A stretch of DNA of 64,000 nucleotides from Eledone cirrhosa (taxonomy: Eukaryota). Below are positions 2,648 to 62,409 of this stretch, piece after piece; position 1 is the first letter of the stretch, and each line of letters opens with the position of its first letter. The stretch lies in assembly GCA_964016885.1 (NCBI GenBank), contig OZ024741.1, forward strand, positions 202,058,001 through 202,122,000, written 5' to 3'. Under the pieces are notes generated by a model. That model did no database searches. It was not told the DNA's origin and was given only the letters and a program-made list of their open reading frames with translations. The position numbers and the translations under genes are program-made.

Positions 2648-2760
2648 ATTACTATTGTTGTTTTGCACCAGAAATTTCTGATAGTCCAAAACTCTACAGA
2701 TATCCGGGAGATTACTAATATACTCAAAAACAATTTTGAATCCTTTTAAATGGGTTTTAT
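2648..2760 (-). CDS. Internal coding exon (113 bp, phase 1 to 0) of a host gene, putative IL-17-receptor-like ectodomain
   Basis: Acceptor ttttttttttaatag|AT and donor AAT|gtgagt. Open frame (D)KTHLKGFKIVFEYISNLPDICRVLDYQKFLVQNNNSN. Phase matches the exon at 11237-11368. Confidence 0.7.
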
Positions 2761-2783
2761 CTATTAAAAAAAAAACATATATA

Positions 2784-5400
2784 ATCATCATCATCATTTT
2801 TACATCCACTTTTCAATGCTTGCATGGGTTGGACAGGTCCTTTTCAACATGGCATCTCTCCACTTGTCGCATTCCTTCGCCATCTCCTCTACCAGTCTTA
2901 GCGATTTGAGGTCTGCTCTCACAACCTCTTCCCAGGTCTTTCTTGATTTTCCTCTATTGCAGCTTCCTTCCACTGGTATTTTCTGGCATCTCTTCACCCA
3001 TAGGTCATTGTCCATACCAATGCAGTCTTCTCTTCTGCACACTATCTCAGATTCCCTTTAAGCCCAGTTTCTCTCTCAGCTCATTCAAGCTCTGCCTTTC
3101 TCTCACACTTACATTGCACATCCAACAAAACATGGCTGCTTCATTTTTCTCCAGTCTACACTTGTCCTCTGCAGTCACAGCCCATGTTTCACTAGCATGC
3201 AGTATTGCACCCTGCACACAGGCGTCATACAACCATCCCTTTGTACATAGGAAGAAACCTTTTGTTGTCATCAGTGGGAGTAGTTCTCTAAAATTCTTTC
3301 ATCCTATCCTTATTCTAGCTATTATATTCTTGGTACACCCTCCTCTGCTGCTAATTAGGTCACCCAGGTAGCAGAAGCTATCAACCACATCTATGGATCC
3401 TTCCTGTGACTGGAAAAGGTTTATATCATTAGCAGCCTTCCTCTCTATTTCTCCTGTGCAACTTCTACAAGTAAAGTTCTCCCTTCCTGTTATTCTACTT
3501 GTTATCCCACTACATCTTTTGTGTACCCAAGATTTACATTGTGTACATTGTATGGAGTTTATGTCTACTCCTTTTCTGCATATTGAGCATGGCCACTTCC
3601 CTGACAGAATCTGGGTCCTGACTTTTCTTCTACTCACTAACACTTTAGTTTTGGCTAAGTTTACTCCCAGGCCTTTTGATTCCAAATTCAGTTTCCATAA
3701 TTGGAATTTATTTTCTAGCTTTTTTTGGTTTCAGCTATAAATGCACAGAGAAGTTCCTATGAGCAGCCCATTTTAAACTCATCTGTTATGGCCTGAAGAA
3801 CTATAATGAACAGCAGTGAACTAAGAACTGAACCTTGATGAACTCCTGCCTGTACCGTGAATTCCTCGCTAAACTCATTTCCTACTCTCACTTTACTGAC
3901 AGCTCCTCTGTACATAGCTTGCACTGCTCGCACAAGCCATTCTTCTACACCTAATTTCCTTAAGAACCACTAGATAATAGATCAAGGTACTCTGTCAAAG
4001 GCCTTCTCTAGATCAACAAAAGCTAAATATAGTGGGGGTTTTTGGCTAGGAACTTCTCTTGTAGTTGCCTCACTAAGAAGAGGGCATCTTTAGTATTTTT
4101 CCCAGGTATGAAACCAAACTGCATCTCATCTATTTTGACTCTTTCCCTAATTAGATGCGCTATAACTTTCTCTCACTTTCATAATTTAGTGTCCATTAGT
4201 TTTATTCCTCTGTTGTTGCTCATTTCTAGAGCATCACCTTTGCCCTTGTAGCAATTTATGATTGCACTGCTGCACCAGTCATTGGGTATGACTCCATCAT
4301 GTATTACTTGATTTACTATACGGGTTACTATTTTGACTCCTACCTCTCCCAATAATTTTAACATCTCAGCAACTATTTCTAATGGTCCTGCAGCTTTACC
4401 ATTTTCCATCTTGATTGCGTCTTTGCCCCTATAACTGTCAACTTCAAGAGCTGATCCTTCTGTTGGGTAAGTTGGGTGTAGTCTCTCTTCTACCCATTCA
4501 TCCTCTACATTTATCAATCTCTCATAGTAACATTTCCAGGCCTCTTTTTTGGGGTGAGGGGGGGGGGGGCATCTGTGGTGCTAAGTGCACCAGCGTAATT
4601 TCTAACACAGGAACACTTCATGCCTCTGATCCTTACATTTCAAGACATTGGCAAATTTACTTTTTTCAGCCTCTCTCCTAGCTGTGTATACCTGTCGCCT
4701 AGCCTTTTTCTTAACTACCTGGTACTGGTTTCTGCTAGCCTCATTTTTCCAGTCTTTCCATGCCTGTCTCTTGGCTTTAATAGCTGTATCTACTGTGCTG
4801 TTCCACCACCAGGTCACCCTCTGTCTGGCTGGCACTTTACTCCAACTACAAGTCTCATCAGTAGTTCACAAATGGTTGTCACATAAGAATTTCCAGTTGT
4901 CCTCTATGTTGTATGTATCTAGTGGTCATCCCGCTCACCAAGTACATCTTGTAGGGCCTTTCTAAACCGAGAGGTTCTTTAGCTTCCACACCCTCCATCT
5001 CCATATTTTCCTGTGTATTGTTCCGTCTTGATTATTTTGATGTCACTAATAACTAACTTGTGCTGGGCAGTGCATTCTTCCCCAGGGAAGGCCTTCGCAT
5101 TTATTACAGTCTGTCTTGTCTATCAAGTAAGTAATCAATTTGGTTTCTGTGTTCACCAGATTGATATGAAATCAGGTGGTTGGCTGGTTTCCTGAAATTT
5201 GTGTTGCAAATGGTTAGTTCATTTGCATCACAGAATTCCAGGTGTCCCACCCCCTCTTCATTTCTTGAGCCATAACCATAGCTGTCATGAACTCCATTGA
5301 ATTCATCCTGTTACTGTCCCACATGTCCATTAAAGTCACCTGCCAGGATGATGAGGTTTCTTTCATCAGTACCTGAAGTTGTCTGTAAAAGATGCGCATA
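2784..5400 (-). mobile_element. 5'-truncated, degraded RTE LINE (APE C-terminal part, RT, PHD finger, (ATG)n tail)
   Basis: ORF fragments LAGDFNGHVG, VTWWWN, GKAAGP..IVAEM, NRGIKLM, GLGVNLAKTKVL, WPCSICRKG..CTQCKSWVHKRC, SFCYLGD, LHASETW. (CAT)n at 2784-2797 is the minus-strand tail. Homologous to 44535-47906. Confidence 0.92.
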
Positions 5401-6046
5401 AAACCTAGTTTTAAAATTATTAGCGGTTGGCTCTATGTAATTAAAGGATTTATTACAAGTTAAAATTTGACATTTATACAATACTTTAATTCTAAGATAA
5501 TTTCCTCTAAGGGGGCAAGAGTCAGGGACTCTACAATTACAGTTGGTTACAAGACTATTAATATTAAGAGGTTTACTTGATATATTACCCTGGTACGATA
5601 AAGAGTTACTAGTACTCAATAGCTTACAATAATTATCAACTTCTAGAATATTATTATTACTATTGTTACACTCGTTATCTACAACGGAATGACTCTGTGC
5701 AGGAGTTTTTTGTTCTAGTTTATATAAGTTTATTTTTTTATTTAGTCAAAGCCAAATATTCTGCTAAATTGGGTGTGGTAGAGAAAGATAAATTAACCAT
5801 ATTTTTGTTTATTATACTATAGTATTATGGTCTTGTGGAAAATTTTTTTATAAGATGCTAAAAAATATTTTTTGTATATGGGACATTATTTGAACTCCGT
5901 ATGGAGGGTGAAACCATATTTGAACTATGGAGGGTGAAACAATATACATTTTCCCCTTCTATTCTTTTTATTACTTACTTGATTTACTAAATTATTAACT
6001 GTTGAGACATTTACTAATAGATTGGTATAATTATTATTCTTATTAA

Positions 6047-6214
6047 GGACAGTGGATTGGCAGTATTGGTAGAGGGTCGGACGCCATGCTTTGCAGCATA
6101 GAGTTACGGCCCTTTACGATTCGAGTTCAAATCCCGCCAGGTTAACTTGGCCTTGCGGGGGTCAATAAAATAAAGCACCAGGGTAATTGCTGGTTTTGTG
6201 CCAAAAGTAGAAAC
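6047..6214 (+). mobile_element. tRNA-derived SINE with 18-bp target-site duplication
   Basis: A-box-like ttggcagtattgg and B-box gagttcaaatccc. Flanked by AATTATTATTCTTATTAA at 6029-6046 and 6215-6232. Body similar to the minus-strand fragment at 48097-48212. Confidence 0.85.
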
Positions 6215-9721: not shown

Positions 9722-10024
9722 TTAAACAAATCATTTTCAGAATTATCCAACATAATATTATGAGGTGTGTTCTTATACGTACTAAATCCAAATTTATATG
9801 AAGTTTTGATTTTGTTGTTGTTTTCTTTGTAGTTTTTCTTCTGATAAAAAAATGTTCCTTTGTACATGTCGGATAAATGAATTAATACTATTAATAAAGT
9901 ATTTCAAATATATCTTCTTTTCCGGCACTGGGATACATTTAAGGGACATCAGAAAGTAATCCTTGGTTAACATCTTAGCCAAAATTATTTAGCTCAATAC
10001 AAAAAAAAAACAGTAATAAAATAG

Positions 10025-10617: not shown

Positions 10618-10959
10618 ATAATATTTATATGAAAATTGAATTGAATGAGTTATTTTCACAATAACAGGACATATAAGCCCCCTGAATGGAAAAAATGGGC
10701 ATCAGCATGTATAGGAATCAAAACCAAAACTATTATTTTTATGATAAGTGTGCTGATTACACCAAGCTTGTCAAGTTATTATTAATGTTAATATGAAACC
10801 TACATGATAACTAAATTTCCTAATGTGCTTGAAGAAATGAAATCGTTGACTTAACAGTTATACAACTCTTATGAACATGCATAATATAATTATAGCATTA
10901 AGCTTATGAAATTCAAGAAGAATTTCTTGAATTTGAAAATAAGATCTTACTTCTCACAA

Positions 10960-11225: not shown

Positions 11226-11236
11226 AAAGATCATAC

Positions 11237-11368
11237 CTGCATTCCATGAAACTTTTATCCCCTTTTTTTGATTGCGCAGGAAATCTGTTACATGAAAAGT
11301 GTTTGGTTTTGCTGGGTACTTCCCAGGAGAAAAAGGGTTGAAGACCTCCAATTTAGTGTTGTTGCAAC
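11237..11368 (-). CDS. Internal coding exon (132 bp, phase 1 to 1) of the same host gene
   Basis: Acceptor ttttaatatttcag|GT and donor CAG|gtatga. Open frame xCNNTKLEVFNPFSPGKYPAKPNTFHVTDFLRNQKKGIKVSWNA, with an FnIII-like P..P..F.V...I.VSW pattern. Confidence 0.7.
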
Positions 11369-12885: not shown

Positions 12886-12900
12886 TTGAATATGATAATA

Positions 12901-15400: not shown

Positions 15401-18400
15401 GAGTAGAGTTGGTGGTGAGAGTGGTGTTGGTGGTGGGAGTAGTGTTGGTGGTGGGAGTAGTGTTGGTGGTGAGAGTAGTGTTGGTGGTGAGAGTAGTGTT
15501 GGTGGTGAGAGTAGTGTTGGTGGTGAGAGTAGTGTTGGTGGTGAGAGTAGTGTTGGTGGTGGGAGTAGTGTTGGTGGTGAGAGTAGTGTTGGTGGTGAGA
15601 GTAGTGTTGGTGGTGAGAGTAGTGTTGGTGGTGAGAGTAGTGTTGGTGGTGGGAGTAGTGTTGGTGGTGGGAGTAGTGTTGGTGGTGAGAGTAGTGTTGG
15701 TGGTGGGAGTAGTGTTGGTGGTGGGAGTAGTGTTGGTGGTGGGAGTAGTGTTGGTGGTTGGAGTAGTGTTGGTGGTGGGAGTAGTGTTGGTGGTGGGAGT
15801 AGTGTTGGTGGTGAGAGTAGTGTTGGTGGTGGAAGTAGTGTTGGTGGTGGAAGTAGTGTTGGTGGTGGGAGTAGTGTTGGTGGTGGGAGTAGTGTTGGTG
15901 GTGGGAGTAGTGTTGGTGGTGGGAGTAGTGTTGGTGGTGAGAGTAGTGTTGGTGGTGGAAGTAGTGTTGGTGGTGGGAGTAGTGTTGGTGGTGGGAGTAG
16001 TGTTGGTGGTGGGAGTAGTGTTGGTGGTGGAAGTAGTGTTGGTGGTGGGAGTAGTGTTGGTGGTGGGAGTAGTGTTGGTGGTGGGAGTAGTGTTGGTGGT
16101 GGGAGTAGTGTTGGTGGTGAAAGTAGTGTTGGTGGTGAGAGTAGTGTTGGTGGTGGGAGTAGTGTTGGTGGTGAGAGTAGTGTTGGTGGTGAGAGTAGCG
16201 TTGGTGGTGAGAGTAGCGTTGGTGGTGGGAGTAGTGTTGGTGGTGGGAGTAGTGTTGGTGGTGAGAGTAGTGTTGGTGGTGGGAGTAGTGTTGGGGGTGA
16301 GAGTAGTGTTGGTGGTGGAAGTAGTGTTGGTGGTGGGAGTAGTGTTGGTGGTGGGAGTAGTGTTGGTGGTGGGAGTAGTGTTGGTGGTGAGAGTAGCGTT
16401 GGTGGTGAGAGTAGCGTTGGTGGTGGGAGTAGTGTTGGTGGTGGGAGTAGTGTTGGTGGTGAGAGTGTTGGTGGTGAGAGTAGTGTTGGTGATGAGAGTA
16501 GTGTTGGTGATGAGAGTAGTGTTGGTGGAGGGAGTAGTGTTGGTGATGAGAGTAGTGTTGGTGGTGGGAGTAGTGTTGGTGATGAGAGTAGTGTTGGTGG
16601 TGGGAGTAGTGTTGGTGGAGGGAGTAGTGTTGGTGATGAGAGTAGTGTTGGTGGTGGGAGTAGTGTTGGTGGAGGGAGTTGTGTTGGTGGTGAGAGTAGT
16701 GTTGGTGGTGAGAGTAGTGTTGGTGGTGAGAGTAGTGTTGGTGGTGGGAGTAGTGTTGGTGGTGGGAGTAGTGTTGGTGGTGAGAGTAGTGTTGGTGGTG
16801 AGAGTAGCGTTGGTGGTGAGAGTAGTGTTGGTGGTGGGAGTAGTGTTGGTGGTGGGAGTAGTGTTGGTGGTGGGAGTAGTGTTGGTGGTGAGAGTAGTGT
16901 TGGTGGTGGGAGTAGTGTTGGTGGTGGGAGTAGTGTTGGTGGTGAGAGTAGTGTTGGTGGTGAGAGTAGTGTTGGTGGTGGGAGTAGTGTTGGTGGTGGA
17001 AGTAGTGTTGGTGATGAGAGTAGTGTTGGTGATGAGAGTAGTGTTGGTGGAGGGAGTAGTGTTGGTGATGAGAGTAGTGTTGGTGGTGGGAGTAGTGTTG
17101 GTGGTGGGAGTAGTGTTGGTGGTGAGAGTAGTGTTGGTGGTGAGAGTAGTGTTGGTGGTGGGAGTAGTGTTGGTGGTGGGAGTAGTGTTGGTGGTGAGAG
17201 TAGTGTTGGTGGTGGGAGTAGTGTTGGTGGTGGAAGTAGTGTTGGTGATGAGAGTAGTGTTGGTGATGAGAGTAGTGTTGGTGGAGGGAGTAGTGTTGGT
17301 GATGAGAGTAGTGTTGGTGGTGAGAGTAGTGTTGGTGATGAGAGTAGTGTTGGTGGTGGGAGTAGTGTTGGTGGTGAGAGTAGTGTTGGTGGTGAGAGTA
17401 GTGTTGGTGGTGAGAGTAGTGTTGGTGGTGGAAGTAGTGTTGGTGATGAGAGTAGTGTTGGTGGTGAGAGTAGTGTTGGTGGAGGGAGTAGTGTTGGTGG
17501 TGAGAGTAGTGTTGGTGGTGAGAGTAGTGTTGGTGGTGGGAGTAGTGTTGGTGATGAGAGTAGTGTTGGTGGAGGGAGTAGTGTTGGTGATGAGAGTAGT
17601 GTTGGTGGAGGGAGTAGTGTTGGTGGTGAGAGTAGTGTTGGTGGTGAGAGTAGTGTTGGTGGTGAGAGTAGTGTTGGTGGTGAGAGTAGTGTTGGTGGTG
17701 AGAGTAGTGTTGGTGGTGAGAGTAGTGTTGGTGGTGAGAGTAGTGTTGGTGGTGGGAGTAGTGTTGGTGATGAGAGTAGTGTTGGTGATGAGAGTAGTGT
17801 TGGTGATGAGAGTAGTGTTGGTGGAGGGAGTAGTGTTGGTGGTGAGAGTAGTGTTGGTGGTGAGAGTAGTGTTGGTGGTGAGAGTAGTGTTGGTGGTGAG
17901 AGTAGTGTTGGTGGTGAGAGTAGTGTTGGTGGTGAGAGTAGTGTTGGTGGTGAGAGTAGTGTTGGTGGTGGGAGTAGTGCTGGTGGTGGGAGTAGTGTTG
18001 GTGGTGAGAGTGTTGGTGGTGAGAGTAGTGTTGGTGATGAGTAGTGTTGGTGATGAGAGTAGTGTTGGTGGAGGGAGTAGTGTTGGTGGAGGGAGTAGTG
18101 TTGGTGGAGGGAGTAGTGTTGGTGGTGGGAGTAGTGTTGGTGGTGGAAGTAGTGTTGGTGGTGGAAGTAGTGTTGGTGGTGGAAGTTGTGTTGGTGGTGA
18201 GAGTAGTGTTGGTGGTGAGAGTAGTGTTGGTGGTGAGAGTAGTGTTGGTAGTGGGAGTAGTGCTGGTGGTGGGAGTAGTGCTGGTGGTGGGAGTAGTGCT
18301 GGTGGTGGGAGTAGTGTTGGTGGTGGGAGTAGTGTTGGTGGTGAGAGTAGTGTTGGTGGTGGGAGTAGTGTTGGTGGTGGGAGTAGTGTTGGTGGTGGAA

Positions 18401-27400: not shown

Positions 27401-30400
27401 GTGGTGAGAGTAGTGTTGGTGGTGAGAGTAATGTTGGTGGTGAGAGTAATGTTGGTGGTGAGAGTAGTGTTGGTGGTGAGAGTAGTGTTGGTGGTGGAGT
27501 AGTGTTGGTGGTGGAGTAGTGTTGGTGGTGAGAGTAGTGTTGGTGGTGAGAGTAGTGTTGGTGGTGAGAGTAGTGTTGGTGGTGAGAGTAGTGTTGGTGG
27601 TGGAAGTAGTGTTGGTGGTGGAAGTAGTGTTGGTGGTGAGAGTAGTGTTGGTGGTGAGAGTAATGTTGGTGGTGAGAGTAGTGTTGGTGGTGAGAGTAGT
27701 GTTGGTGGTGGGAGTAGTGTTGGTGGTGAGAGTAGTGTTGGTGGTGAGAGTAGTGTTGGTGGTGGGAGTAGTGTTGGTGGTGAGAGTAGTGTTGGTGGTG
27801 GGAGTAGTGTTGGTGGTGAGAGTAGTGTTGGTGGTGGGAGTAGTGTTGGTGGTGAGAGTAGTGTTGGTGGTGAGAGTAGTGTTGGTGGTTGAAGTAGTGT
27901 TGCTGGTGGGAGTAGTGTTGGTGGTGGGAATTGTGTTGGTGGTGGGAGTAGTGTTGGTGGTGGAAGTAGTGTTGGTGGTGGGAGTAGTGTTGGTGGTGAG
28001 AGTAGTGTTGGTGGTGAGAGTAGTGTTGGTGGTGAGAGTAGTGTTGGTGGTGAGAGTAGTGTTGGTGGTGAGAGTAGTGTTGGTGGTGAGAGTAGTGTTG
28101 GTGGTGGGAGTAGTGTTGGTGGTGGAAGTAGTGTTGGTGGTGAGAGTAGTGTTGGTGGTGGGAGTAGTGTTGGTGGTGGGAGTAGTGTTGGTGGAGGGAG
28201 TTGTGTTGGTGGTGGGAGTAGTGTTGGTGGTGAGAGTAGTGTTGGTGGTGAGAGTAGTGTTGGTGGTGGGAGTAGTGTTGCTGGTGAGAGTAGTGTTGGA
28301 GGTGGAAGTAGTGTTGGTGGTGGGAGTAGTGTTGGTGGTGGGAGTAGTGTTGGTGGTGAGAGTAGTGTTGGTGGTGAGAGTAGTGTTGGTGGTGAGAGTA
28401 GTGTTGGTGGTGAGAGTAGTGTTGGTGGTGGAAGTAGTGTTGGTGGTGGGAGTAGTGTTGGTGGTGGAAGTAGTGTTGGTGGTGGGAGTAGTGTTGGTGG
28501 TGGGAGTTGTGTTGGTGGTGAGAGTTGTGTTGGTGGTGAGAGTAGTGTTGGTGGTGAGAGTAGTGTTGGTGGTGGGAGTAGTGTTGGTGGTGGAAGTAGT
28601 GTTGGTGGTGGAAGTAGTGGTGGTGAAAGTAGTGTTGGTGGTGGGAGTAGTGTTGGTGGTGGAAGTAGTGTTGGTGGTGGAAGTAGTGTTGGTGGTGGAA
28701 GTAGTGTTGGTGGTGGGAGTAGTGTTGGTGGTGGGAGTAGTGTTGCTGGTGGGAGTAGTGTTGGTGGTGAGAGTAGTGTTGGTGGTGGGAGTTGTGTTGG
28801 TGGTGAGAGTAGTGTTGGTGGTGAGAGTGGTGTTGGTGGTGAGAGTGGTGTTGGTGGTGAGAGTAGTGTTGGTGGTGAGAGTGGTGTTGGTGGTGAGAGT
28901 AGTGTTGGTGGTGGGAGTAATGTTGGTGGTGAGAGTAGTGTTGGTGGTGGGAGTAGTGTTGGTGGTGGGAGTAGTGTTGGTGGTGAGAGTAGTGTTGGTG
29001 GTGGGAGTAGTGTTGGTGGTGGGAGTAGTGTTGGTGGTGGAAGTAGTGTTGGTGGTTGAAGTAGTGTTGGTGGTGAGAGTAGTGTTGGTGGTTGAAGTAG
29101 TGTTGGTGGTGGGAGTAGTGTTGGTGGTGAGAGTAGTGTTGGTGGTGGGAGTAGTGTTGGTGGTGAGAGTGTTGGTGGTGAGAGTAGTGTTGGTGGTGAG
29201 AGTAGTGTTGGTGGTGGGAGTAGTGTTGGTGGTGAGAGTGGTGTTGGTGGTGGAAGTAGTGTTGGTGGTGAGAGTAGTGTTGGTGGTGAGAGTAGTGTTG
29301 GTGGTGAGAGTAGTGTTGGTGGTGAGAGTAGTGTTGGTGGTGGGAGTAGTGTTGGTGGTGGGAGTAGTGTTGGTGGTGGGAGTAGTGTTGATGGTGAGAG
29401 TAGTGTTGGTGGTGAGAGTAGTGTTGGTGGTGATAGTAGTGTTGGTGGTGAGAGTAGTGTTGGTGGTGGGAGTAATGTTGGTGGTGAGAGTAGTGTTGGT
29501 GGTGGGAGTAGTGTTGGTGGTGGGAGTAGTGTTGGTGTTGGGAGTAGTGTTGGTGGTGAGAGTAGTGTTGGTGGTGGGAGTAGTGTTGGTGGTGGGAGTA
29601 GTGTTGGAGGTGGAAGTAGTGTTGGTGGTGGAAGTAGTGTTGGTGGTGGAAGTAGTGTTGGTGGTGGAAGTAGTGTTGGTGGTGAGAGTAGTGTTGGTGG
29701 TTGAAGTAGTGTTGCTGGTGGGAGTAGTGTTGGTGGTGGGAATTGTGTTGGTGGTGGGAGTAGTGTTGGTGGTGGAAGTAGTGTTGGTGGTGGGAGTAGT
29801 GTTGGTGGTGAGAGTAGTGTTGGTGGTGAGAGTAGTGTTGGTGGTGAGAGTAGTGTTGGTGGTGAGAGTAGTGTTGGTGGTGAGAGTAGTGTTGGTGGTG
29901 AGAGTAGTGTTGGTGGTGGGAGTAGTGTTGGTGGTGGAAGTAGTGTTGGTGGTGAGAGTAGTGTTGGTGGTGGGAGTAGTGTTGGTGGTGGGAGTAGTGT
30001 TGGTGGAGGGAGTTGTGTTGGTGGTGGGAGTAGTGTTGGTGGTGAGAGTAGTGTTGGTGGTGGGAGTAGTGTTGCTGGTGAGAGTAGTGTTGGAGGTGGA
30101 AGTAGTGTTGGTGGTGGGAGTAGTGTTGGTGGTGGGAGTAGTGTTGGTGGTGAGAGTAGTGTTGGTGGTGAGAGTAGTGTTGGTGGTGAGAGTAGTGTTG
30201 GTGGTGAGAGTAGTGTTGGTGGTGGAAGTAGTGTTGGTGGTGGGAGTAGTGTTGGTGGTGGAAGTAGTGTTGGTGGTGGGAGTAGTGTTGGTGGTGGGAG
30301 TTGTGTTGGTGGTGAGAGTTGTGTTGGTGGTGAGAGTAGTGTTGGTGGTGAGAGTAGTGTTGGTGGTGGGAGTAGTGTTGGTGGTGGAAGTAGTGTTGGT

Positions 30401-33400
30401 GGTGGAAGTAGTGGTGGTGAAAGTAGTGTTGGTGGTGGGAGTAGTGTTGGTGGTGAGAGTAGTGTTGGTGGTGGAAGTAGTGTTGGTGGTGGAAGTAGTG
30501 TTGGTGGTGGAAGTAGTGTTGGTGGTGGGAGTAGTGTTGGTGGTGGAAGTAGTGTTGGTGGTGGGAGTAGTGTTGGTGGTGGGAGTAGTGTTGCTGGTGG
30601 GAGTAGTGTTGGTGGTGAGAGTAGTGTTGGTGGTGGGAGTTGTGTTGGTGGTGAGAGTAGTGTTGGTGGTGAGAGTGGTGTTGGTGGTGAGAGTAGTGTT
30701 GGTGGTGAGAGTGGTGTTGGTGGTGAGAGTAGTGTTGGTGGTGGGAGTAATGTTGGTGGTGAGAGTAGTGTTGGTGGTGGGAGTAGTGTTGGTGGTGGGA
30801 GTAGTGTTGGTGGTGAGAGTAGTGTTGGTGGTGGGAGTAGTGTTGGTGGTGGGAGTAGTGTTGGTGGTGGAAGTAGTGTTGGTGGTTGAAGTAGTGTTGG
30901 TGGTGAGAGTAGTGTTGGTGGTTGAAGTAGTGTTGGTGGTGGGAGTAGTGTTGGTGGTGAGAGTAGTGTTGGTGGTGGGAGTAGTGTTGGTGGTGAGAGT
31001 GTTGGTGGTGAGAGTAGTGTTGGTGGTGAGAGTAGTGTTGGTGGTGGGAGTAGTGTTGGTGGTGAGAGTGGTGTTGGTGGTGGAAGTAGTGTTGGTGGTG
31101 AGAGTGGTGTTGGTGGTGGAAGTAGTGTTGGTGGTGAGAGTAGTGTTGGTGGTGAGAGTAGTGTTGGTGGTGAGAGTAGTGTTGGTGGTGGGAGTAGTGT
31201 TGGTGGTGGGAGTAGTGTTGGTGGTGGGAGTAGTGTTGATGGTGAGAGTAGTGTTGGTGGTGAGAGTAGTGTTGGTGGTGATAGTAGTGTTGGTGGTGAG
31301 AGTAGTGTTGGTGGTGGGAGTAATGTTGGTGGTGAGAGTAGTGTTGGTGGTGGGAGTAGTGTTGGTGGTGGGAGTAGTGTTGGTGTTGGGAGTAGTGTTG
31401 GTGGTGAGAGTAGTGTTGGTGGTGGGAGTAGTGTTGGTGGTGGGAGTAGTGTTGGAGGTGGAAGTAGTGTTGGTGGTGGAAGTAGTGTTGGTGGTGAGAG
31501 TAGTGTTGGTGGTGGGAGTAGTGTTGGTGGTGAGAGTAGTGTTGGTGGTGGGAGTAGTGTTGGTGGTGAGAGTAGTGTTGGAGTTGGAAGTAGTGTTGGT
31601 GGTGGAAGTAGTGTTGGTGGTGAGAGTAGTGTTGGTGGTGGAAGTAGTGTTGGTGGTGGGAGTAGTGTTGGTGGTGGGAGTAGTGTTGGTGGTGGGAGTA
31701 GTGTTGGTGGTGGGAGTAGTGTTGGTGGTGGAAGTAGTGTTGGTGGTGGGAGTAGTGTTGGTGGTGGGAGTAGTGTTGGTGGTGAGAGTAGTGTTGGTGG
31801 TGAGAGTAGTGTTGGTGGTGAGAGTAGTGTTGGAGGTGGAAGTAGTGTTGGTGGTGGAAGTAGTGTTGGTGGTGGGAGTAGTGTTGGGAGTAGTGTTGGT
31901 GGTGAGAGTAGTGTTGGTGGTGAGAGTAGTGTTGGAGCTGGAAGTAGTGTTGGTGATGGAAGTAGTGTTGGTGGTGAGAGTAGTGTTGGTGGTGAGAGTA
32001 GTGTTGGTGGTGGAAGTAGTGTTGGTGGTGGGAGTAGTGTTGGTGGTGGGAGTAGTGTTGGTGGTGAGAGTAGTGTTGGTGGTGGGAGTAGTGTTGGTGG
32101 TGAGAGTAGTGTTGGTGGTGGGAGTAGTGTTGGTGGTGGGAGTAGTGTTGGTGGTGAGAGTAGTGTTGGTGGTGGAAGTAGTGTTGGTGGTGGGAGTAGT
32201 GTTGGTGGTGAGAGTAGTGTTGGTGGTGGAAGTAGTGTTGGTGGTGGGAGTAGTGTTGGTGGTGGAAGTAGTGTTGGTGGTGGGAGTAGTGTTGGATGTG
32301 GAAGTAGTGTTGGTGGTGAGAGTAGTGTTGGTGGTGAGAGTAGTGTTGGTGGTGGAAGTAGTGTTGGGAGTAGTGTTGGTGGTGGGAGTAGTGTTGGTGG
32401 TGGGAGTAGTGTTGGTGGTGGGAGTAGTGTTGGTGGTGAGAGTAGTGTTGGTGGTGGGAGTAGTGTTGGTGGTGGGAGTAGTGTTGGTGGTGGGAGTAGT
32501 GTTGTTGGTGGGAGTAGTGTTGGTGGTGGAAGTAGTGTTGGTGGTGGAAGTAGTGTTGGGAGTAGTGTTGGTGGTGAGAGTAGTGTTGGTGGTGGAAGTA
32601 GTGTTGGTGGTGGGAGTAGTGTTGGTGGAGGGAGTAGTGTTGGTGGTGGGAGTAGTGTTGGTGGTGAGAGTATCGTTGGTGGTGGGAGTAGTGTTGGTGG
32701 TGAGAGTAGTGTTAGTGGTGAGAGTAGTGTTGGTGGTGAGAGTAGTGTTGGTGGTGAGAGTAGTGTTGGTGGTTGAAGTAGTGTTGGTGGTGAGAGTAGT
32801 GTTGGTGGTGAGAGTGGTGTTGGTGGTGGGAGTAATGTTGGTGGTGGGAGTAGTGTTGGTGGTGGGAGTAGTGTTGGTGGTGGGAGTAGTGTTGGTGGTG
32901 GGAGTAGTGTTGGTGGTGAGAGTAGTGTTGGTGGTGGGAGTAGTGTTGGTGGTGGGAGTAGTGTTGGTGGTGGGAGTAGTGTTGGTGGTGAGAGTAGTGT
33001 TGGTGGTGGGAGTAGTGTTGGTGGTGAGAGTAGTGTTGGTGGTGGGAGTAGTGTTGGTGGTGAGAGTAGTGTTGATGGTGGGAGTAGTGTTGGTGGTGAG
33101 AGTAGTGTTGGTGGTGAGAGTAGTGTTGGTGGTGAGAGTAGTGTTGGTGGTGGGAGTAGTGTTGGTGGTGGGAGTAGTGTTGGTGGTGAGAGTAGTGTTG
33201 GTGGTGAGAGTGGTGAGAGTAGTGTTGGTGGTGAGAGTAGTGTTGGTGGTGAGAGTAGTGTTGGTGGTGGGAGTAGTGTTGGTGGTGGGAGTAGTGTTGG
33301 TGGTGAGAGTAGTGTTGGTGGTGAGAGTGGTGGGAGTAGTGTTGGTGGAGGGAGTAGTGTTGGTGGTGAGAGTAGTGTTGGTGGTGGAAGTAGTGTTGGT

Positions 33401-36400
33401 GGTGGGAGTAGTGTTGGTGGAGGGAGTAGTGTTGGTGGAGGGAGTAGTGTTGGTGGTGGAAGTAGTGTTGGTGGTGGGAGTAGTGTTGGTGGTGAGAGTA
33501 TCGTTGGTGGTGGGAGTAGTGTTGGTGGTGAGAGTAGTGTTGGTGGTGAGAGTAGTGTTGGTGGTGAGAGTAGTGTTGGTGGTGAGAGTAGTGTTGGTGG
33601 TGAGAGTAGTGTTGGTGGTGAGAGTAGTGTTGGTGGTTGAAGTAGTGTTGGTGGTGAGAGTAGTGTTGGTGGTGAGAGTGGCGTTGGTGGTGGGAGTAAT
33701 GTTGGTGGTGGGAGTAGTGTTGGTGGTGAGAGTAGTGTTGGTGGTGAGAGTAGTGTTGGTGGTGGGAGTAGTGTTGGTGGTGAGAGTAGTGTTGGTCGTG
33801 GGAGTAGTGTTGGTGGTGAGAGTAGTGTTGGTGGTGAGAGTAGTGTTGGTGGTGAGAGTAGTGTTGGTGGTGGGAGTAGTGTTGGTGGTGGAAGTAGTGT
33901 TGGTGGTGGGAGTAGTGTTGGTGGTGGGAGTAGTGTTGGTGGTGAGAGTAGTGATGGTGGTGAGAGTAGTGTTGGTGGTGAGAGTAGTGTTGGTGGTGAG
34001 AGTAGTGTTGGTGGTAAGAGTAGTGTTGGTGGTGAGAGTAGTGTTGGTGGTGAGAGTAGTGTTGGTGGTGAGAGTAGTGTTGGTGGTGAGAGTAGTGTTG
34101 GTGGTGAGAGTAGTGTTGGTGGTGAGAGTAGTGTTGGTGGTGGGAGTAGTGTTGGTGGTGAGAGTAGTGTTGGTGGTGAGAGTAGTGTTGGTGGTGAGAG
34201 TAGTGTTGGTGGTGAGAGTAGTGTTGGTGGTAAGAGTAGTGTTGGTGGTAAGAGTAGTGTTGGTGGTGAGAGTAGTGTTGGTGGTGAGAGTAGTGTTGGT
34301 GGTGAGAGTAGTGTTGGTGGTGAGAGTAGTGTTGGTGGTGAGAGTAGTGTTGGTGGTGGGAGTAGTGTTGGTGGTGGGAGTAGTGTTGGTGGTGAGAGTA
34401 GTGTTGGTGGTGAGAGTAGTGTTGGTGGTGAGAGTAGTGTTGGTGGTGAGAGTAGTGTTGGTTGTGGAAGTAGTGTTGGTGGTGGAAGTAGTGTTGGTGG
34501 TGAGAGTAGTGTTGGTGGTGAGAGTAGTGTTGGTGGTGAGAGTAGTGTTGGTGGTGAGAGTAGTGTTTGTGGTGAGAGTAGTGTTGGTGGTGGGAGTAGT
34601 GTTGGTGGTGAGAATAGTGTTGCTGGTGGGAGTAGTGTTGGTGGTGAGAATAGTGTTGCTGGTGGGAATAGTGTTGGTGGTGAGAGTAGTGTTGGTGGTG
34701 AGAGTAGTGTTGGCAGTGGGAGTAGTGTTGGTGGTGGGAGTAGTGTTGGTGGTGAGAGTAGTGTTGGTGGTGGAAGTAGTGTTGGTGGTGGAAGTAGTGT
34801 TGGTGGTGGGAGTAGTGTTGGTGGTGGGAGTAGTGTTGGTGGTGGAAGTACAGTTGGTGGTGGAAGTAGTGTTGGTGGTGAGAGTAGTGTTGGTGGTGAG
34901 AGTAGTGTTGGTGGTGAGAGTAGTGTTGGTGGTGGAAGTAGTGTTGGTGGTGGAAGTAGTGTTGGGAGTAGTGTTGGTGGTGGGAGTAGTGTTGGTGGTG
35001 GGAGTAGTGTTGGTGGTGAGAGTAGTGTTGGTGGTGGGAGTAGTGTTGGTGGTGGGAGTAGTGTTGGTGGTGAGAGTAGTGTTGGTGGTGAGAGTAGTGT
35101 GGGTGGTGAGAGTAGTGTTGGTGGTGGAAGTAGTGTTGGTGGTGGGAGTAGTGTTGTTGGTGGGAGTAGTGTTGTTGGTGAGAGTAGTGTTGGTGGTGAG
35201 AGTAGTGTTGGTGGTGGGAGTAGTGTTGGTGGTGAGAGTAGTGTTGGTGGAGGGAGTAGTGTTGGTGGTGAGAGTAGTGTTGGTGGTGGGAGTAGTGTTG
35301 GTGGTGAGAGTATCGTTGGTGGTGGGAGTAGTGTTGGTGGTGAGAGTAGTGTTGGTGGTGAGAGTAGTGTTGGTGGTGAGAGTAGTGTTGGTGGTTGAAG
35401 TAGTGTTGGTGGTGAGAGTAGTGTTGGTGGTGAGAGTAGTGTTGGTGGTGAGAGTGGTGTTGGTGGTGGGAGTAATGTTGGCGGTGGGAGTAGTGTTGGT
35501 GGTGGGAGTAGTGTTGGTCGTGGGAGTAGTGTTGGTGGTGAGAGTAGTGTTGGTGGTGAGAGTAGTGTTGGTGGTGAGAGTAGTGTTGGTGGTGGGAGTA
35601 GTGTTGGTGGTGGAAGTAGTGTTGGTGGTGGGAGTAGTGTTGGTGGTGGGAGTAGTGTTGGTGGTGAGAGTAGTGTTGGTGGTGAGAGTAGTGTTGGTGG
35701 TGAGAGTAGTGTTGGTGGTGAGAGTAGTGTTGGTGGTGGGAGTAGTGTTGGTGGTGGAAGTAGTGTTGGTGGTGAGAGTAGTGTTGGTGGTGAGAGTAGT
35801 GTTGGTGGTGAGAGTAGTGTTGGTGGTGAGAGTAGTGTTGGTGGTGAGAGTAGTGTTGGTGGTGAGAGTAGTGTTGGTGGTGAGAGTAGTGTTGGTGGTG
35901 AGAGTAGTGTTGGTGGTGAGAGTAGTGTTGGTGGTGAGAGTAGTGTTGGTGGTGAGAGTAGTGTTGGTGGTGAGAGTAGTGTTGGTGGTAAGAGTAGTGT
36001 TGGTGGTGAGAGTAGTGTTGGTGGTGAGAGTAGTGTTGGTGGTAAGAGTAGTGGTGGTAAGAGTAGTGTTGGTGGTAAGAGTAGTGTTGGTGGTGAGAGT
36101 AGTGTTGGTGGTGAGAGTAGTGTTGGTGGTGAGAGTAGTGTTGGTGGTGAGAGTAGTGTTGGTGGTGAGAGTAGTGTTGGTGGTCAGAGTAGTGTTGGTG
36201 GTCAGAGTAGTGTTGGTGGTGGGAGTAGTGTTGGTGGTGAGAGTAGTGTTGGTGGTGAGAGTAGTGTTGGTGGTGAGAGTAGTGTTGGTGGTGAGAGTAG
36301 TGTTGGTGGTGGAAGTAGTGTTGGTGGTGAGAGTAGTGTTGGTGGTGAGAGTAGTGTTGGTGGTGAGAGTAGTGTTGGTGGTGAGAGTAGTGTTGGTGGT

Positions 36401-39400
36401 GGGAGTTGTGTTGGTGGTGGGAGTAGTGTTGGTGGTGAGAGTAGTGTTGGTGGTGGAAGTAGTGTTGGTGGTGGGAGTAGTGTTGGTGGTGAGAGTAGTG
36501 TTGGTGGTGGAAGTAGTGTTGGTGGTGGGAGTAGTGTTGGTGGTGGAAGTAGTGTTGGTGGTGGGAGTAGTGTTGGATGTGGAAGTAGTGTTGGTGGTGA
36601 GAGTAGTGTTGGTGGTGAGAGTAGTGTTGGTGGTGGAAGTAGTGTTGGTGGTGGAAGTAGTGTTGGGAGTAGTGTTGGTGGTGGGAGTAGTGTTGGTGGT
36701 GGGAGTAGTGTTGGTGGTGGGAGTAGTGTTGGTGGTAAGAGTAGTGTTGGTGGTGAGAGTAGTGTTGGTGGTGGGAGTAGTGTTGGTGGTGGGAGTAGTG
36801 TTGGTGGTGGGAGTAGTGTTGTTGGTGGGAGTAGTGTTGGTGGTGGAAGTAGTGTTGGTGGTGGAAGTAGTGTTGGGAGTAGTGTTGGTGGTGAGAGTAG
36901 TGTTGGTGGTGGAAGTAGTGTTGGTGGTGGGAGTAGTGTTGGTGGAGGGAGTAGTGTTGGTGGTGGGAGTAGTGTTGGTGGTGAGAGTATCGTTGGTGGT
37001 GGGAGTAGTGTTGGTGGTGAGAGTAGTGTTAGTGGTGAGAGTAGTGTTGGTGGTGAGAGTAGTGTTGGTGGTGAGAGTAGTGTTGGTGGTTGAAGTAGTG
37101 TTGGTGGTGAGAGTAGTGTTGGTGGTGAGAGTGGTGTTGGTGGTGGGAGTAATGTTGGTGGTGGGAGTAGTGTTGGTGGTGGGAGTAGTGTTGGTGGTGG
37201 GAGTAGTGTTGGTGGTGAGAGTAGTGTTGGTGGTGGGAGTAGTGTTGGTCGTGGAAGTAGTGTTGGTGGTGGGAGTAGTGTTGGTGGTGGGAGTAGTGTT
37301 GGTGGTGGGAGTAGTGTTGGTGGTGAGAGTAGTGTTGGTGGTGGGAGTAGTGTTGGTGGTGGGAGTAGTGTTGGTGGTGAGAGTAGTGTTGGTGGTGGGA
37401 GTAGTGTTGGTGGTGAGAGTAGTGTTGATGGTGGGAGTAGTGTTGGTGGTGAGAGTAGTGTTGGTGGTGAGAGTAGTGTTGGTGGTGAGAGTAGTGTTGG
37501 TGGTGGGAGTAGTGTTGGTGGTGGGAGTAGTGTTGGTGGTGAGAGTAGTGTTGGTGGTGAGAGTGGTGAGAGTAGTGTTGGTGGTGAGAGTAGTGTTGGT
37601 GGTGAGAGTAGTGTTGGTGGTGGGAGTAGTGTTGGTGGTGGGAGTAGTGTTGGTGGAGGGAGTAGTGTTGGTGGTGGGAGTAGTGTTGGTGGTGGGAGTA
37701 GTGTTGGTGGTGAGAGTATCGTTGGTGGTGGGAGTAGTGTTGGTGGTGAGAGTAGTGTTGGTGGTGAGAGTAGTGTTGGTGGTGAGAGTAGTGTTGGTGG
37801 TGAGAGTAGTGTTGGTGGTGAGAGTAGTGTTGGTGGTGAGAGTAGTGTTGGTGGTTGAAGTAGTGTTGGTGGTGAGAGTAGTGTTGGTGGTGAGAGTGGC
37901 GTTGGTGGTGGGAGTAATGTTGGTGGTGGGAGTAGTGTTGGTGGTGAGAGTAGTGTTGGTGGTGAGAGTAGTGTTGGTGGTGGGAGTAGTGTTGGTGGTG
38001 AGAGTAGTGTTGGTCGTGGGAGTAGTGTTGGTGGTGAGAGTAGTGTTGGTGGTGAGAGTAGTGTTGGTGGTGAGAGTAGTGTTGGTGGTGGGAGTAGTGT
38101 TGGTGGTGGAAGTAGTGTTGGTGGTGGGAGTAGTGTTGGTGGTGGGAGTAGTGTTGGTGGTGAGAGTAGTGATGGTGGTGAGAGTAGTGTTGGTGGTGAG
38201 AGTAGTGTTGGTGGTGAGAGTAGTGTTGGTGGTAAGAGTAGTGTTGGTGGTGAGAGTAGTGTTGGTGGTGAGAGTAGTGTTGGTGGTGAGAGTAGTGTTG
38301 GTGGTGAGAGTAGTGTTGGTGGTGAGAGTAGTGTTGGTGGTGAGAGTAGTGTTGGTGGTGGGAGTAGTGTTGGTGGTGAGAGTAGTGTTGGTGGTGAGAG
38401 TAGTGTTGGTGGTGAGAGTAGTGTTGGTGGTGAGAGTAGTGTTGGTGGTAAGAGTAGTGTTGGTGGTAAGAGTAGTGTTGGTGGTGAGAGTAGTGTTGGT
38501 GGTGAGAGTAGTGTTGGTGGTGAGAGTAGTGTTGGTGGTGAGAGTAGTGTTGGTGGTGAGAGTAGTGTTGGTGGTGGGAGTAGTGTTGGTGGTGGGAGTA
38601 GTGTTGGTGGTGAGAGTAGTGTTGGTGGTGAGAGTAGTGTTGGTGGTGAGAGTAGTGTTGGTGGTGAGAGTAGTGTTGGTGGTGGAAGTAGTGTTGGTGG
38701 TGGAAGTAGTGTTGGTGGTGAGAGTAGTGTTGGTGGTGAGAGTAGTGTTGGTGGTGAGAGTAGTGTTTGTGGTGAGAGTAGTGTTGGTGGTGGGAGTAGT
38801 GTTGGTGGTGAGAATAGTGTTGCTGGTGGGAGTAGTGTTGGTGGTGAGAATAGTGTTGCTGGTGGGAATAGTGTTGGTGGTGAGAGTAGTGTTGGTGGTG
38901 AGAGTAGTGTTGGCAGTGGGAGTAGTGTTGGTGGTGGGAGTAGTGTTGGTGGTGAGAGTAGTGTTGGTGGTGGAAGTAGTGTTGGTGGTGGAAGTAGTGT
39001 TGGTGGTGAGAGTAGTGTTGGTGGTGAGAGTAGTGTTTGTGGTGAGAGTAGTGTTGGTGGTGGGAGTAGTGTTGGTGGTGAGAATAGTGTTGCTGGTGGG
39101 AGTAGTGTTGGTGGTGAGAATAGTGTTGCTGGTGGGAATAGTGTTGGTGGTGAGAGTAGTGTTGGTGGTGAGAGTAGTGTTGGCAGTGGGAGTAGTGTTG
39201 GTGGTGGGAGTAGTGTTGGTGGTGAGAGTAGTGTTGGTGGTGGAAGTAGTGTTGGTGGTGGAAGTAGTGTTGGTGGTGGGAGTAGTGTTGGTGGTGGGAG
39301 TAGTGTTGGTGGTGGAAGTACAGTTGGTGGTGGAAGTAGTGTTGGTGGTGAGAGTAGTGTTGGTGGTGAGAGTAGTGTTGGTGGTGAGAGTAGTGTTGGT

Positions 39401-42358
39401 GGTGGAAGTAGTGTTGGTGGTGGAAGTAGTGTTGGGAGTAGTGTTGGTGGTGGGAGTAGTGTTGGTGGTGGGAGTAGTGTTGGTGGTGAGAGTAGTGTTG
39501 GTGGTGGGAGTAGTGTTGGTGGTGGGAGTAGTGTTGGTGGTGAGAGTAGTGTGGGTGGTGAGAGTAGTGTTGGTGGTGGAAGTAGTGTTGGTGGTGGGAG
39601 TAGTGTTGTTGGTGGGAGTAGTGTTGTTGGTGAGAGTAGTGTTGGTGGTGAGAGTAGTGTTGGTGGTGAGAGTAGTGTTGGTGGTGGGAGTAGTGTTGGT
39701 GGTGAGAGTAGTGTTGGTGGTGGGAGTAGTGTTGGTGGTGGGAGTAGTGTTGGTTGTGAGAGTAGTGTTGGTGGTGAGAGTGGTGGGAGTAGTGTTGGTG
39801 GAGGGAGTAGTGTTGGTGGTGAGAGTAGTGTTGGTGGTGGAAGTAGTGTTGGTGGTGGGAGTAGTGTTGGTGGTGAGAGTAGTGTTGGTGGTGGGAGTAG
39901 TGTTGGTGGTGAGAGTATCGTTGGTGGTGGGAGTAGTGTTGGTGGTGAGAGTAGTGTTGGTGGTGAGAGTAGTGTTGGTGGTGAGAGTAGTGTTGGTGGT
40001 TGAAGTAGTGTTGGTGGTGAGAGTAGTGTTGGTGGTGAGAGTAGTGTTGGTGGTGAGAGTGGTGTTGGTGGTGGGAGTAATGTTGGCGGTGGGAGTAGTG
40101 TTGGTGGTGGGAGTAGTGTTGGTCGTGGGAGTAGTGTTGGTGGTGAGAGTAGTGTTGGTGGTGAGAGTAGTGTTGGTGGTGAGAGTAGTGTTGGTGGTGG
40201 GAGTAGTGTTGGTGGTGGAAGTAGTGTTGGTGGTGGGAGTAGTGTTGGTGGTGGGAGTAGTGTTGGTGGTGGGAGTAGTGTTGGTGGTGAGAGTAGTGTT
40301 GGTGGTGAGAGTAGTGTTGGTGGTGAGAGTAGTGTTGGTGGTGAGAGTAGTGTTGGTGGTGGGAGTAGTGTTGGTGGTGGAAGTTGTGTTGGTGGTGAGA
40401 GTAGTGTTGGTGGTGAGAGTAGTGTTGGTGGTGAGAGTAGTGTTGGTGGTGAGAGTAGTGTTGGTGGTGAGAGTAGTGTTGGTGGTGAGAGTAGTGTTGG
40501 TGGTGAGAGTAGTGTTGGTGGTAAGAGTAGTGTTGGTGGTGAGAGTAGTGTTGGTGGTGAGAGTAGTGTTGGTGGTAAGAGTAGTGTTGGTGGTAAGAGT
40601 AGTGTTGGTGGTAAGAGTAGTGTTGGTGGTGAGAGTAGTGTTGGTGGTGAGAGTAGTGTTGGTGGTGAGAGTAGTGTTGGTGGTGAGAGTAGTGTTGGTG
40701 GTGAGAGTAGTGTTGGTGGTCAGAGTAGTGTTGGTGGTGGGAGTAGTGTTGGTGGTGAGAGTAGTGTTGGTGGTGAGAGTAGTGTTGGTGGTGAGAGTAG
40801 TGTTGGTGGTGAGAGTAGTGTTGGTGGTGGAAGTAGTGTTGGTGGTGAGAGTAGTGTTGGTGGTGAGAGTAGTGTTGGTGGTGAGAGTAGTGTTGGTGGT
40901 GAGAGTAGTGTTGGTGGTGAGAGTAGTGTTGGTGGTGGGAGTTGTGTTGGTGGTGGGAGTAGTGTTGGTGGTGAGAGTAGTGTTGGTGATGAGAGTAGTG
41001 TTTGTGGTGAGAGTAGTGTTGGTGGTGGAAGTAGTGTTGGTGGTGGGAGTAGTGTTGGTGGTGAGAGTAGTGTTGGTGGTGAGAGTAGTGTTGGTGGTGA
41101 GAGTAGTGTTGGTGGTGAGAGTAGTGTTGGTGGTGAGAGTATTGTTGGTGGTGAGAGTAGTGTTGGTGGTGAGAGTAGTGTTGGTGGTGAGAGTAGTGTT
41201 GGTGATGAGAGTAGTGTTTGTGGTGAGAGTAGTGTTGGTGGTGGGAGTAGTGTTGGTGGTGAGAATAGTGTTGCTGGTGGGAGTAGTGTTGGTGGTGAGA
41301 GTAGTGTTGGTGATGAGAGTAGTGTTTGTGGTGAGAGTAGTGTTGGTGGTGGGAGTAGTGTTGGTGGTGAGAGTAGTGTTGGTGGTGGGAGTAGTGTTGG
41401 TCGTGAGAGTAGTGTTGGTGGTGGGAGTAGTGTTGGTGGTGAGAGTAGTGTTGGTGGTGGGAGTAGTGTTGGTGGTGAGAGTAGTGTTGGTGGTGAGAGT
41501 AGTGTTGGTCGTGAGAGTAGTGTTGGTGGTGGGAGTAGTGTTGGTGGTGAGAGTAGTGTTGGTGGTGGGAGTAGTGTTGGTGGTGAGAGTAGTGTTGGTG
41601 GTGAGAGTAGTGTTGGTGATGAGAGTAGTGTTTGTGGTGAGAGTAGTGTTGGTGGTGGGAGTAGTGTTGGTGATGAGAGTAGTGTTTGTGGTGAGAGTAG
41701 TGTTGGTGGTGGGAGTAGTGTTGGTGATGAGAGTAGTGTTTGTGGTGAGAGTAGTGTTGGTGGTGAGAATAGTGTTGCTGGTGGGAGTAGTGTTGGTGGT
41801 GAGAGTAGTGTTGGTGGTGGGAGTAGTGTTGGTGGTGGGAGTAGTGTTGCTGGTGGGAGTAGTGTTGGTGGTGAGAGTAGTGTTGGTGGTGGAAGTAGTG
41901 TTGGTGGTGGGAGTAGTGTTGGTGGTGGGAGTAGTGTTGGTGGTGGGAGTAGTGTTGGTGGTGGAAGTACAGTTGGTGGTGGAAGTAGTGTTGGTGGTGA
42001 GAGTAGTGTTGGTGGTGAGAGTAGTGTTGGTGGTGAGAGTAGTGTTGGTGGTGAGAGTAGTGTTGGTGGTGAGAGTAGTGTTGGTGGTGGGAGTAGTGTT
42101 GCTGGTGGGAGTAGTGTTGGTGGTGAGAGTGGTGTTGGGAGTAGTGTTGGTGGTGAGAGTAGTGTTGGTGGTGGGAGTAGTGTTGGTGGTGAGAGTAGTG
42201 TTGGTGGTGGAAGTAGTGTTGGTGGTGGAAGTAGTGTTGGTGGTGAGAGTAGTGTTGGTGGTGAGAGTAGTGTTGGTGGTGGAAGTAGTGTTGGTGGTGA
42301 GAGTAGTGTTGGTGGTGGAAGTAGTGTTGGTGGTGAGAGTAGTGTTGGTGGTGGAAGT
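15401..42358. repeat. 27-kb tandem array of an 18-bp unit (+ strand GTAGTGTTGGTGGTG[AGA/GGA/GAA]), about 1,500 copies, with kb-scale higher-order duplications
   Basis: Directly visible. 26,958 bp / 18 is about 1,500 units. The plus strand is almost C-free. Confidence 0.99.
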
Positions 42359-42409
42359 GCAAGATTTGATTAGGCTACTAATGTGAAATAAAAGAAAAAC
42401 TAATTCCAT
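27520..42409 (-). CDS. Candidate giant mucin-like Thr/Asn-rich coding region (TTNTT[L/P/S])n, possibly extending to ~15401
   Basis: ATG at 42409 gives MELVFLLFHISSLIKSC followed by repeats. About 4,950 codons stay in one register, with only 3n indels and many synonymous variants. Same strand as the host exons. No splice donor was found at the far end. Confidence 0.4.
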
Positions 42410-42549
42410 TTCAAATATGTTTTTAGATGGTTTCTTCAAAAGTTAAAAGTTTACATTTCTTTGGAAAGATAAATTGTATATAAATATTGATAAATATGAT
42501 TATAAAAAGGTTTTTTTAATCTAAATGATGTTTTGATTAAAATACTTAC

Positions 42550-42577
42550 ATGGTGTCGTATATAAATAGTAAGGTGC
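42550..42577 (-). CDS. 28-bp micro-exon of the host gene
   Basis: Very strong acceptor tttttttttatcttttcag|G and donor CAT|gtaagt. Read in phase 0 it gives APYYLYTTP plus T, which joins GT of the 11368 exon as Cys. Confidence 0.6.

Positions 42578-62354: not shown

Positions 62355-62358
<4 letters not shown>

Positions 62359-62408: not shown

Positions 62409-62409
<1 letters not shown>

Follow-up and report, generated by a model that had tools for sequence, protein, structure and literature searches.

The 64,000-nt stretch of the Eledone cirrhosa genome analyzed here (the window; contig OZ024741.1, G000:C2:202058001-202122000 of a 3.0-Gb genome) lies in its entirety inside a single receptor gene, which we call the C2 gene. 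The gene is a member of the interleukin-17 (IL-17) receptor family and belongs to a fast-evolving cephalopod clade. We consider it probable that it is an intact 10-exon IL-17 receptor (IL-17R) gene, whose predicted single-pass product likely binds IL-17 dimers and likely signals through its SEFIR domain. Three of the coding exons fall within the window:

42550..42577, minus strand, coding exon 2, 28 nt, phase 0-1; matched by homologs and uninterrupted in the C6 copy (below)
11237..11368, minus strand, coding exon 3, 132 nt, phase 1-1; FnIII-like domain 1
2648..2760, minus strand, coding exon 4, 113 nt, phase 1-0; FnIII-like domain 1

An initial annotation of the window had proposed these exons (42577-42550, 11368-11237, and 2760-2648) from the letters of the DNA. 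Each stands where it was placed, with an AG acceptor and a GT donor, and re-derivation of the phases (0-1, 1-1, and 1-0) gave a 273-nt stop-free join encoding the 91-aa peptide that had been claimed. Among the 36 candidates passing a crude exon filter, exons 4 and 2 scored highest against the homologs (41.8 and 24.8 bits; next candidate, 16.8); exon 3 was dropped by the acceptor rule of that filter.

The junction between exons 3 and 4 (11237/2760) is present as an exact join in one public contig. Record 1 of run X1 (2141 nt) carries exon 3 at 349-480 and exon 4 at 481-593 with 0 differences and 0 gaps, and contigs from the genome-sized runs X2 to X4 cross the exon edges straight into intron. 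The four runs belong to one study, in which X1 is not recorded as RNA; because it contains a spliced contig and is small (88 million letters versus ~1400 million), X1 is likely RNA. The junction between exons 2 and 3 (42550/11368) would rest on the Octopus homologs, on the room left in the X1 contig upstream of exon 3, and on an intronless relative elsewhere in the genome:

G000:C6:84178542-84179717 (L002:1367-2542), plus strand, intronless ectodomain-only copy with an open 391-aa frame, inside a non-autonomous long terminal repeat (LTR) element

This C6 copy is continuous through both proposed junctions, 42550/11368 included. The joined 91-aa peptide of exons 2 to 4 matches three IL-17R-like Octopus proteins with 53 to 57% identity (E 2e-32 to 6e-28), and the 348 nt upstream of exon 3 in the X1 contig offer room for 130 coding nt and ~218 nt of untranslated region (UTR).

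The remaining exons were found by mapping the C6 copy and the three Octopus homologs onto 364 kb around the window:

G000:C2:202125665-202125564, minus strand, exon 1, with the ATG and a signal-like stretch; 3.6 kb right of the window
G000:C2:202057984-202057867, minus strand, exon 5
G000:C2:202057273-202057110, minus strand, exon 6, Ig_ILCR1
G000:C2:202025221-202025174, minus strand, exon 7
G000:C2:202015093-202014991, minus strand, exon 8
G000:C2:202013944-202013777, minus strand, exon 9, stalk and transmembrane helix
G000:C2:202009070-202008370, minus strand, exon 10, SEFIR and stop

The initial annotation spoke of a gene fragment; what we find instead is a whole gene. The start exon anticipated above 42577 is exon 1, and the transmembrane and SEFIR exons anticipated left of position 1 are exons 9 and 10, the left-hand group (exons 5 to 10) reaching as far as 49.6 kb from the window. 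The 10 coding exons span 117,296 bp and join into 1677 nt, encoding 558 aa with one terminal stop; all 10 give one open frame, all 9 introns are GT-AG, and the introns measure 593 to 31,888 bp. If the X1 contig is colinear with this model, its length agrees, leaving ~218 nt for the 5' UTR and 246 nt for the 3' UTR. The predicted protein starts with a hydrophobic N-terminus, which is followed by two beta domains that contain cysteines, a Ser/Thr/Pro stalk, a transmembrane stretch at about aa 301 to 323, and a cytoplasmic domain encoded by exon 10; judged by hydropathy only, the peaks are at window starts aa 5-6 (1.6) and aa 297-307 (maximum 2.44). A 12-nt micro-exon in intron 6 that would explain a 4-aa gap relative to the C6 copy had no candidate at ≤4 mismatches. 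Coding sequence makes up just 1.4% of the span and the introns are filled with repeats, as might be expected if the exons were open by chance or left over from a dead gene, but the open 10-exon frame, the spliced contig, the retrocopy, and the homologs refute that explanation, to which we assign a vanishingly small probability.

The assignment to the IL-17 receptor family, made by eye in the initial annotation, holds: Ig_ILCR1 and SEFIR both pass their cut-offs on single exons, and fold comparison ranks IL-17RA and IL-17RB first. Exons 2 to 4 encode most of the first FnIII-like domain, as had been suggested. Exon 6 scores 30.5 against a cut-off of 27 for Ig_ILCR1 (Pfam PF23608) and corresponds to domain 2, and exon 10 alone reaches 23.1 bits against a cut-off of 23 for SEFIR (PF08357). 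For the model of exon 10 (first 205 aa; predicted local distance difference test [pLDDT] 91), all three matches at E≤0.001 were SEFIR entries from IL-17RA/RB complexes, with template modeling (TM) scores of 0.68 to 0.70, and TIR domains scored lower. The ectodomain model, that of the C6 copy, is mainly beta (pLDDT 91.6), and IL-17RA/RB entries occupied ranks 1 to 10 of its fold search. A 36-sequence profile searched against PDB sequences matched the IL-17RA ectodomain (E 3.6e-12). The two FnIII folds and the SEFIR fold are predicted to be closest to those of IL-17RA/RB; no IL-17RD entry was among the PDB matches listed in either the profile or the fold search. The particular resemblance to IL17RD drawn in the initial annotation is not supported: in trees built with no vertebrate sequences, the gene groups within a cephalopod clade. 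An IF3 match to exon 4 (E 0.07) was rejected as chance. In sections of PMC11087794, IL-17Rs are defined as type I membrane proteins with a double FnIII and a SEFIR, and sequence degeneration is described as frequent in both the FnIII and the SEFIR parts; the C2 product has a type I topology (by hydropathy), a double extracellular FnIII, and a cytoplasmic SEFIR.

Close homologs with the same layout are present in Octopus bimaculoides, O. vulgaris, and Argonauta. A protein profile search returned 49 matches, 16 of which were short or repetitive and were left out of the domain scan; Ig_ILCR1 was detected in 30 and SEFIR in 20 of the 33 scanned. The C2 gene is 56 to 58% identical to P0002 and P0003 over about 570 columns (P0001 to P0003, 51 to 58%), and identity to three relatives is 47 to 52% in the ectodomain and 60 to 73% in the SEFIR part. 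In trees of 16 ectodomains and 20 SEFIR regions, built with no vertebrate sequences, the C2 gene falls in one clade with the Octopus and Argonauta proteins and one further record (100/98 and 99/98), with the C6 copy as its sister (96/98); long branches make the deeper nodes unsure. None of the 164 candidates in the protein search was a relative longer than 685 aa, and both the C2 gene and the C6 copy were missing from 113 protein-search candidates. The gene is apparently unannotated, its octopod relatives being present in NCBI as uncharacterized proteins, and no paper title on an octopus IL-17 receptor gene or retrocopy was found in a search of titles that left subscription journals largely uncovered. 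Two O. vulgaris predictions, P0004 and P0007, have gag-like sequence (DUF7041 in P0007) fused to exons of the receptor subfamily; these fusions are probably gene-prediction artifacts.

As for function, the ectodomain would bind one or more of the IL-17 cytokines of this genome, as mammalian and invertebrate IL-17Rs do. Ligand binding would pair the receptor with a second IL-17R, SEFIR-SEFIR contact would recruit the adaptor CIKS/Act1, and CIKS/Act1 would act through TRAF6 on NF-kB. The IL-17 dimer, receptor pairing, CIKS/Act1, and the NF-kB route are summarized for mammals and bivalves in passages of PMC8353272. The ectodomain changes faster than the SEFIR part, which would fit coevolution with an expanded ligand family. 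Complex prediction with the C6 ectodomain and an IL-17 dimer from C1, in which alignments were not used, gave a score of 0.00, which we count neither way.

Several observations weigh against an intact, signaling IL-17 receptor. Read support covers only one of the nine junctions, that of exons 3 and 4. The ectodomain model comes from the C6 copy, which is 70% identical, rather than from the joined exons of the C2 gene, and its whole-ectodomain TM scores were 0.34 to 0.41 with a root mean square deviation of ~13; from this we infer a different hinge angle, the comparison having been made on both domains together rather than singly. PDB sequence searches with one sequence or four gave chance matches only and no IL-17R, and neither in the C6 copy nor in any of the three closest homologs did domain 1 reach a Pfam cut-off. 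A CIKS/Act1 adaptor was not identified in the genome, SEFIR matches on C4 and C12 being candidates for either adaptor or receptor. Since shrimp and bug IL-17Rs bind the neurohormones CFSH and PTTH, as reported in part of PMC11087794, the role need not be immune. Finally, the SEFIR score is borderline, and the whole-genome SEFIR search overlooked exon 10.

This last point bears on the alternative that the C2 product modulates rather than transmits, as a co-receptor or brake with a degenerate SEFIR. Vertebrate SEF/IL-17RD has been described as a modulator of this kind. The SEFIR of exon 10 stands at the cut-off, against ~39 to 93 bits in most distant matches, and the cytoplasmic tail is short, the whole protein measuring 558 aa against 650 to 860 aa for most distant matches. 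The SEFIR part is, however, the better-conserved half of the protein and is predicted to fold like the IL-17RA SEFIR with its extension, and SEFIR degeneration is common across IL-17Rs in the account given in portions of PMC11087794; we regard a purely modulatory role as unlikely.

The ligand search identified 47 IL-17 matches among 55 candidates, 45 of them within 0.8 Mb of C1 and 2 on C26; for O. bimaculoides, 31 to 36 IL-17 genes are cited in an excerpt of PMC8353272. Near-identical tandem copies ~9.5 kb apart were seen among the 45 matches of the C1 cluster (G000:C1:348.60-349.39 Mb; L086 to L097). Candidate receptor loci are few: the C2 gene, a divergent paralog on C2, a locus on C14, a weak one at C2:358.1 Mb, and SEFIR exons on C4 and C12, in searches that give lower bounds. 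The numbers bear on a third possibility, namely that the receptor signals in a neural or endocrine role and binds a cystine-knot neurohormone encoded elsewhere than in the large IL-17 cluster. The arthropod receptors for CFSH and PTTH offer a precedent (PMC11087794, in part), as does a C. elegans IL-17R that acts in neurons according to text from bioRxiv 10.64898/2026.04.13.718218, but 47 IL-17 matches face only ~4 to 6 candidate receptor loci in this genome, and fast ectodomain change would fit a diversifying ligand set. A neurohormone ligand, for which no dedicated search was made, strikes us as quite improbable. Octopuses have dozens of IL-17 ligands, and pairing them with receptors is made easier by having one receptor modeled in full and its few candidate paralogs listed.

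The divergent paralog (L099 and L049; G000:C2:202390921-202416168, plus strand) lies ~265 to 290 kb to the right on the opposite strand; its Ig_ILCR1 exon scores above the cut-off, and its last exon is 28 to 36% identical to the subfamily without a SEFIR score. L040/L102 (C14:40.04-40.05 Mb) carries SEFIR and Ig_ILCR1, the latter just under the cut-off; L039 (C4:312.01 Mb) is a SEFIR locus with a 601-aa exon containing a poly-Gln tract; and L025 (C12:18.47 Mb) and L101 (C2:358.10 Mb) are further SEFIR or Ig_ILCR1 loci. One of L040/L102, L039, L025, and L101 may be the CIKS adaptor.

The C6 copy was the one other match in a DNA search of the genome with exon 3. It has lost the introns at all eight of the junctions it spans, extends from 48 nt before the ATG of the mRNA to coding position 832 (nucleotide 24 of exon 9), and ends without poly(A), ~23 codons short of the transmembrane helix. 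It comprises the signal peptide and ectodomain only and is 16.5% diverged from the C2 gene, the two differing at 137 sites. Immediately 3' of the cDNA, the terminal 14 nt of an LTR lead into a primer-binding-site motif; a non-coding internal region follows, and then the 3' half of an LTR. This flank is 86 to 87% identical to element copy L052, which has two LTRs of ~840 nt (the flank search gave 54 matches, with 40 of 266 candidates scored and 14 other copies examined). On the 5' side there are patchy LTR matches (L002 1029-1125 and 1273-1325) and a TATA motif (L002:1030), with no ATG between that motif and the receptor ATG. The 3' junction shows possible microsimilarity, the mRNA having 7 nt in common with the LTR end of L058 and fewer with that of L052; at the 5' junction there is only a loose CA-rich overlap. 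The element ends at about L002 3455; its 5' LTR start is not alignable, and its flanks are microsatellite. A low-penalty LTR alignment at the element was discarded as noise. The assembly yielded no intron-bearing gene that would be a closer source for the copy, the searches again being lower bounds. These features suggest that the C6 copy is likely an LTR-mediated retrocopy, made when the reverse transcriptase of the element switched template to the receptor mRNA. Even a silent copy would still serve as a clear illustration, from a cephalopod, of likely LTR-mediated retroposition.

In the non-autonomous copies L052, L053, and L058, the LTR end and primer-binding site are repeated in tandem. 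A related LTR adjoins the window, ahead of a DUF7041 gag-like frame.

It is possible, if doubtful, that by capturing a receptor mRNA cut before the transmembrane helix, the element produced in one step a secreted IL-17 decoy, kept open by selection and buffering the ~47 IL-17s. The TATA-bearing LTR would stand in front of such a gene, and the element would supply a Ser/Thr-rich tail and the stop. Receptor sequence accounts for 282 of the 391 open codons and element DNA for the other 109. None of the 12 cysteines has been lost, none of the four length differences shifts the frame, and the sole hydrophobic peak (aa 5-6) points to a signal peptide and no transmembrane helix. Among sites invariant in the parent and the three homologs, 7 of 106 are changed in the copy, against ~17 expected neutrally at a branch length of 0.08. 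The neutral P is 0.002 at that length, 0.035 at 0.06, and 0.29 at 0.04, and the evidence for selection depends on the age of the copy. An open match across the whole tail occurs in none of the 14 other element copies, and in a crude test a shuffled tail stayed open in 0.4% of 5000 trials.

Other figures tell against a decoy. The flanks differ from the nearest copy found by 0.10 to 0.15, that is, ~0.05 to 0.07 per branch, and the chance of no stop in the frame is 0.14 at a branch length of 0.06 and 0.27 at 0.04. Departures at conserved sites number 5 in the copy versus 2 in the parent over 89 columns, and the overall ratio of nonsynonymous to synonymous change (dN/dS) is 1.23 (bootstrap, 0.84 to 1.96; 276 codons). 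Polarized amino acid changes number 27 in the copy and 23 in the parent; together with the dN/dS, this split could reflect fast change in both or drift in one. The constraint might also be older than the capture, had the copy come from a paralog since lost. Were the copy expressed and able to bind ligand, a mollusc would have a soluble cytokine decoy built by a retrotransposon, one that converges on the role of IL-17REL. No such case appeared among paper titles, in a search that largely left subscription journals uncovered.

The introns within the window contain the following:

15401..42358, no strand assigned, minisatellite, 27 kb, 18-bp unit, ~1508 copies; most of intron 2; an intronic passenger
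8282-9058, 44638-45660, 51745-54360, 59236-59982, and 60310-61089, transposon remnants in introns (Pfam)

The minisatellite has a GC skew near 0.99, and its sense strand is nearly stop-free in all three frames. Its reading as a giant mucin exon (one 9095-codon sense frame) was rejected, because all sense frames are nearly stop-free while off-register units shift the reading, and because only 348 nt precede exon 3 in the X1 contig; we judge its open frames to be compositional. The remnants comprise a DDE_Tnp_1_7 transposase, an endonuclease, a reverse transcriptase with zf-RVT, a PIF1 helicase, and an integrase, and frames 58060-58986 and 62349-63755 have no Pfam match. On the plus strand left of the gene, 95 to 198 kb from window base 1 (L012 to L022), a segment that reaches ~58 kb in length occurs about three times, at 98 to 99% identity; each copy has a short start-exon-like stretch with no further exons found, and two stop after 23 codons.

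The nearest known counterparts of the C2 gene are octopod IL-17R-like proteins: O. bimaculoides LOC106873178, LOC106875973, and LOC106875972, O. vulgaris predicted proteins, and Argonauta hians GAB1607498, all listed as uncharacterized or hypothetical. Like the full-length members of this group, the C2 product has ~560 aa, the same layout, and Ig_ILCR1 with a weak SEFIR; in the tree, however, it does not pair with any one Octopus paralog, and it carries a 1-aa insertion and a 4-aa deletion without counterpart in the C6 copy and the three Octopus homologs. Human IL-17RA and IL-17RB (PDB 4hsa, 3jvf, 7uwm, 4nux, and 9ot1) are the top fold matches for both parts and share the double FnIII ectodomain, one transmembrane helix, and SEFIR, but identity is 12 to 16%, the whole-ectodomain TM score is low, and no one-to-one orthology is shown. 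Pfam families PF23608 (Ig_ILCR1) and PF25519 (ILCR1_N) are presumably named after the C. elegans receptor ILCR-1; domain 2 of the C2 gene passes PF23608, whereas domain 1 is under the PF25519 cut-off even in the sole matching close homolog (15.8 versus 27).

For the C6 copy, two known systems invite comparison. IL-17REL, a vertebrate decoy, lacks the signaling tail. It is receptor derived and suppresses IL-17A, IL-17F, and IL-17C by binding them, according to work cited in a portion of bioRxiv 10.64898/2026.04.13.718218; the C6 copy would differ in having arisen independently by retroposition, with a 109-aa tail from element DNA. The LTR-mediated retrocopies described in sections of PMC5131818 are, like the C6 copy, partial and 3' truncated, lack poly(A), and have element DNA on both sides; the 7 nt shared at the 3' junction of the C6 copy may correspond to the short sequence shared at theirs. 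In the Drosophila cases treated there, an internal open reading frame is replaced, whereas in the C6 copy the cDNA takes the place of 5' LTR sequence that would lie upstream of the primer-binding site. The C6 copy also differs from those retrocopies in its age (16.5% divergence), at which its frame is still open.

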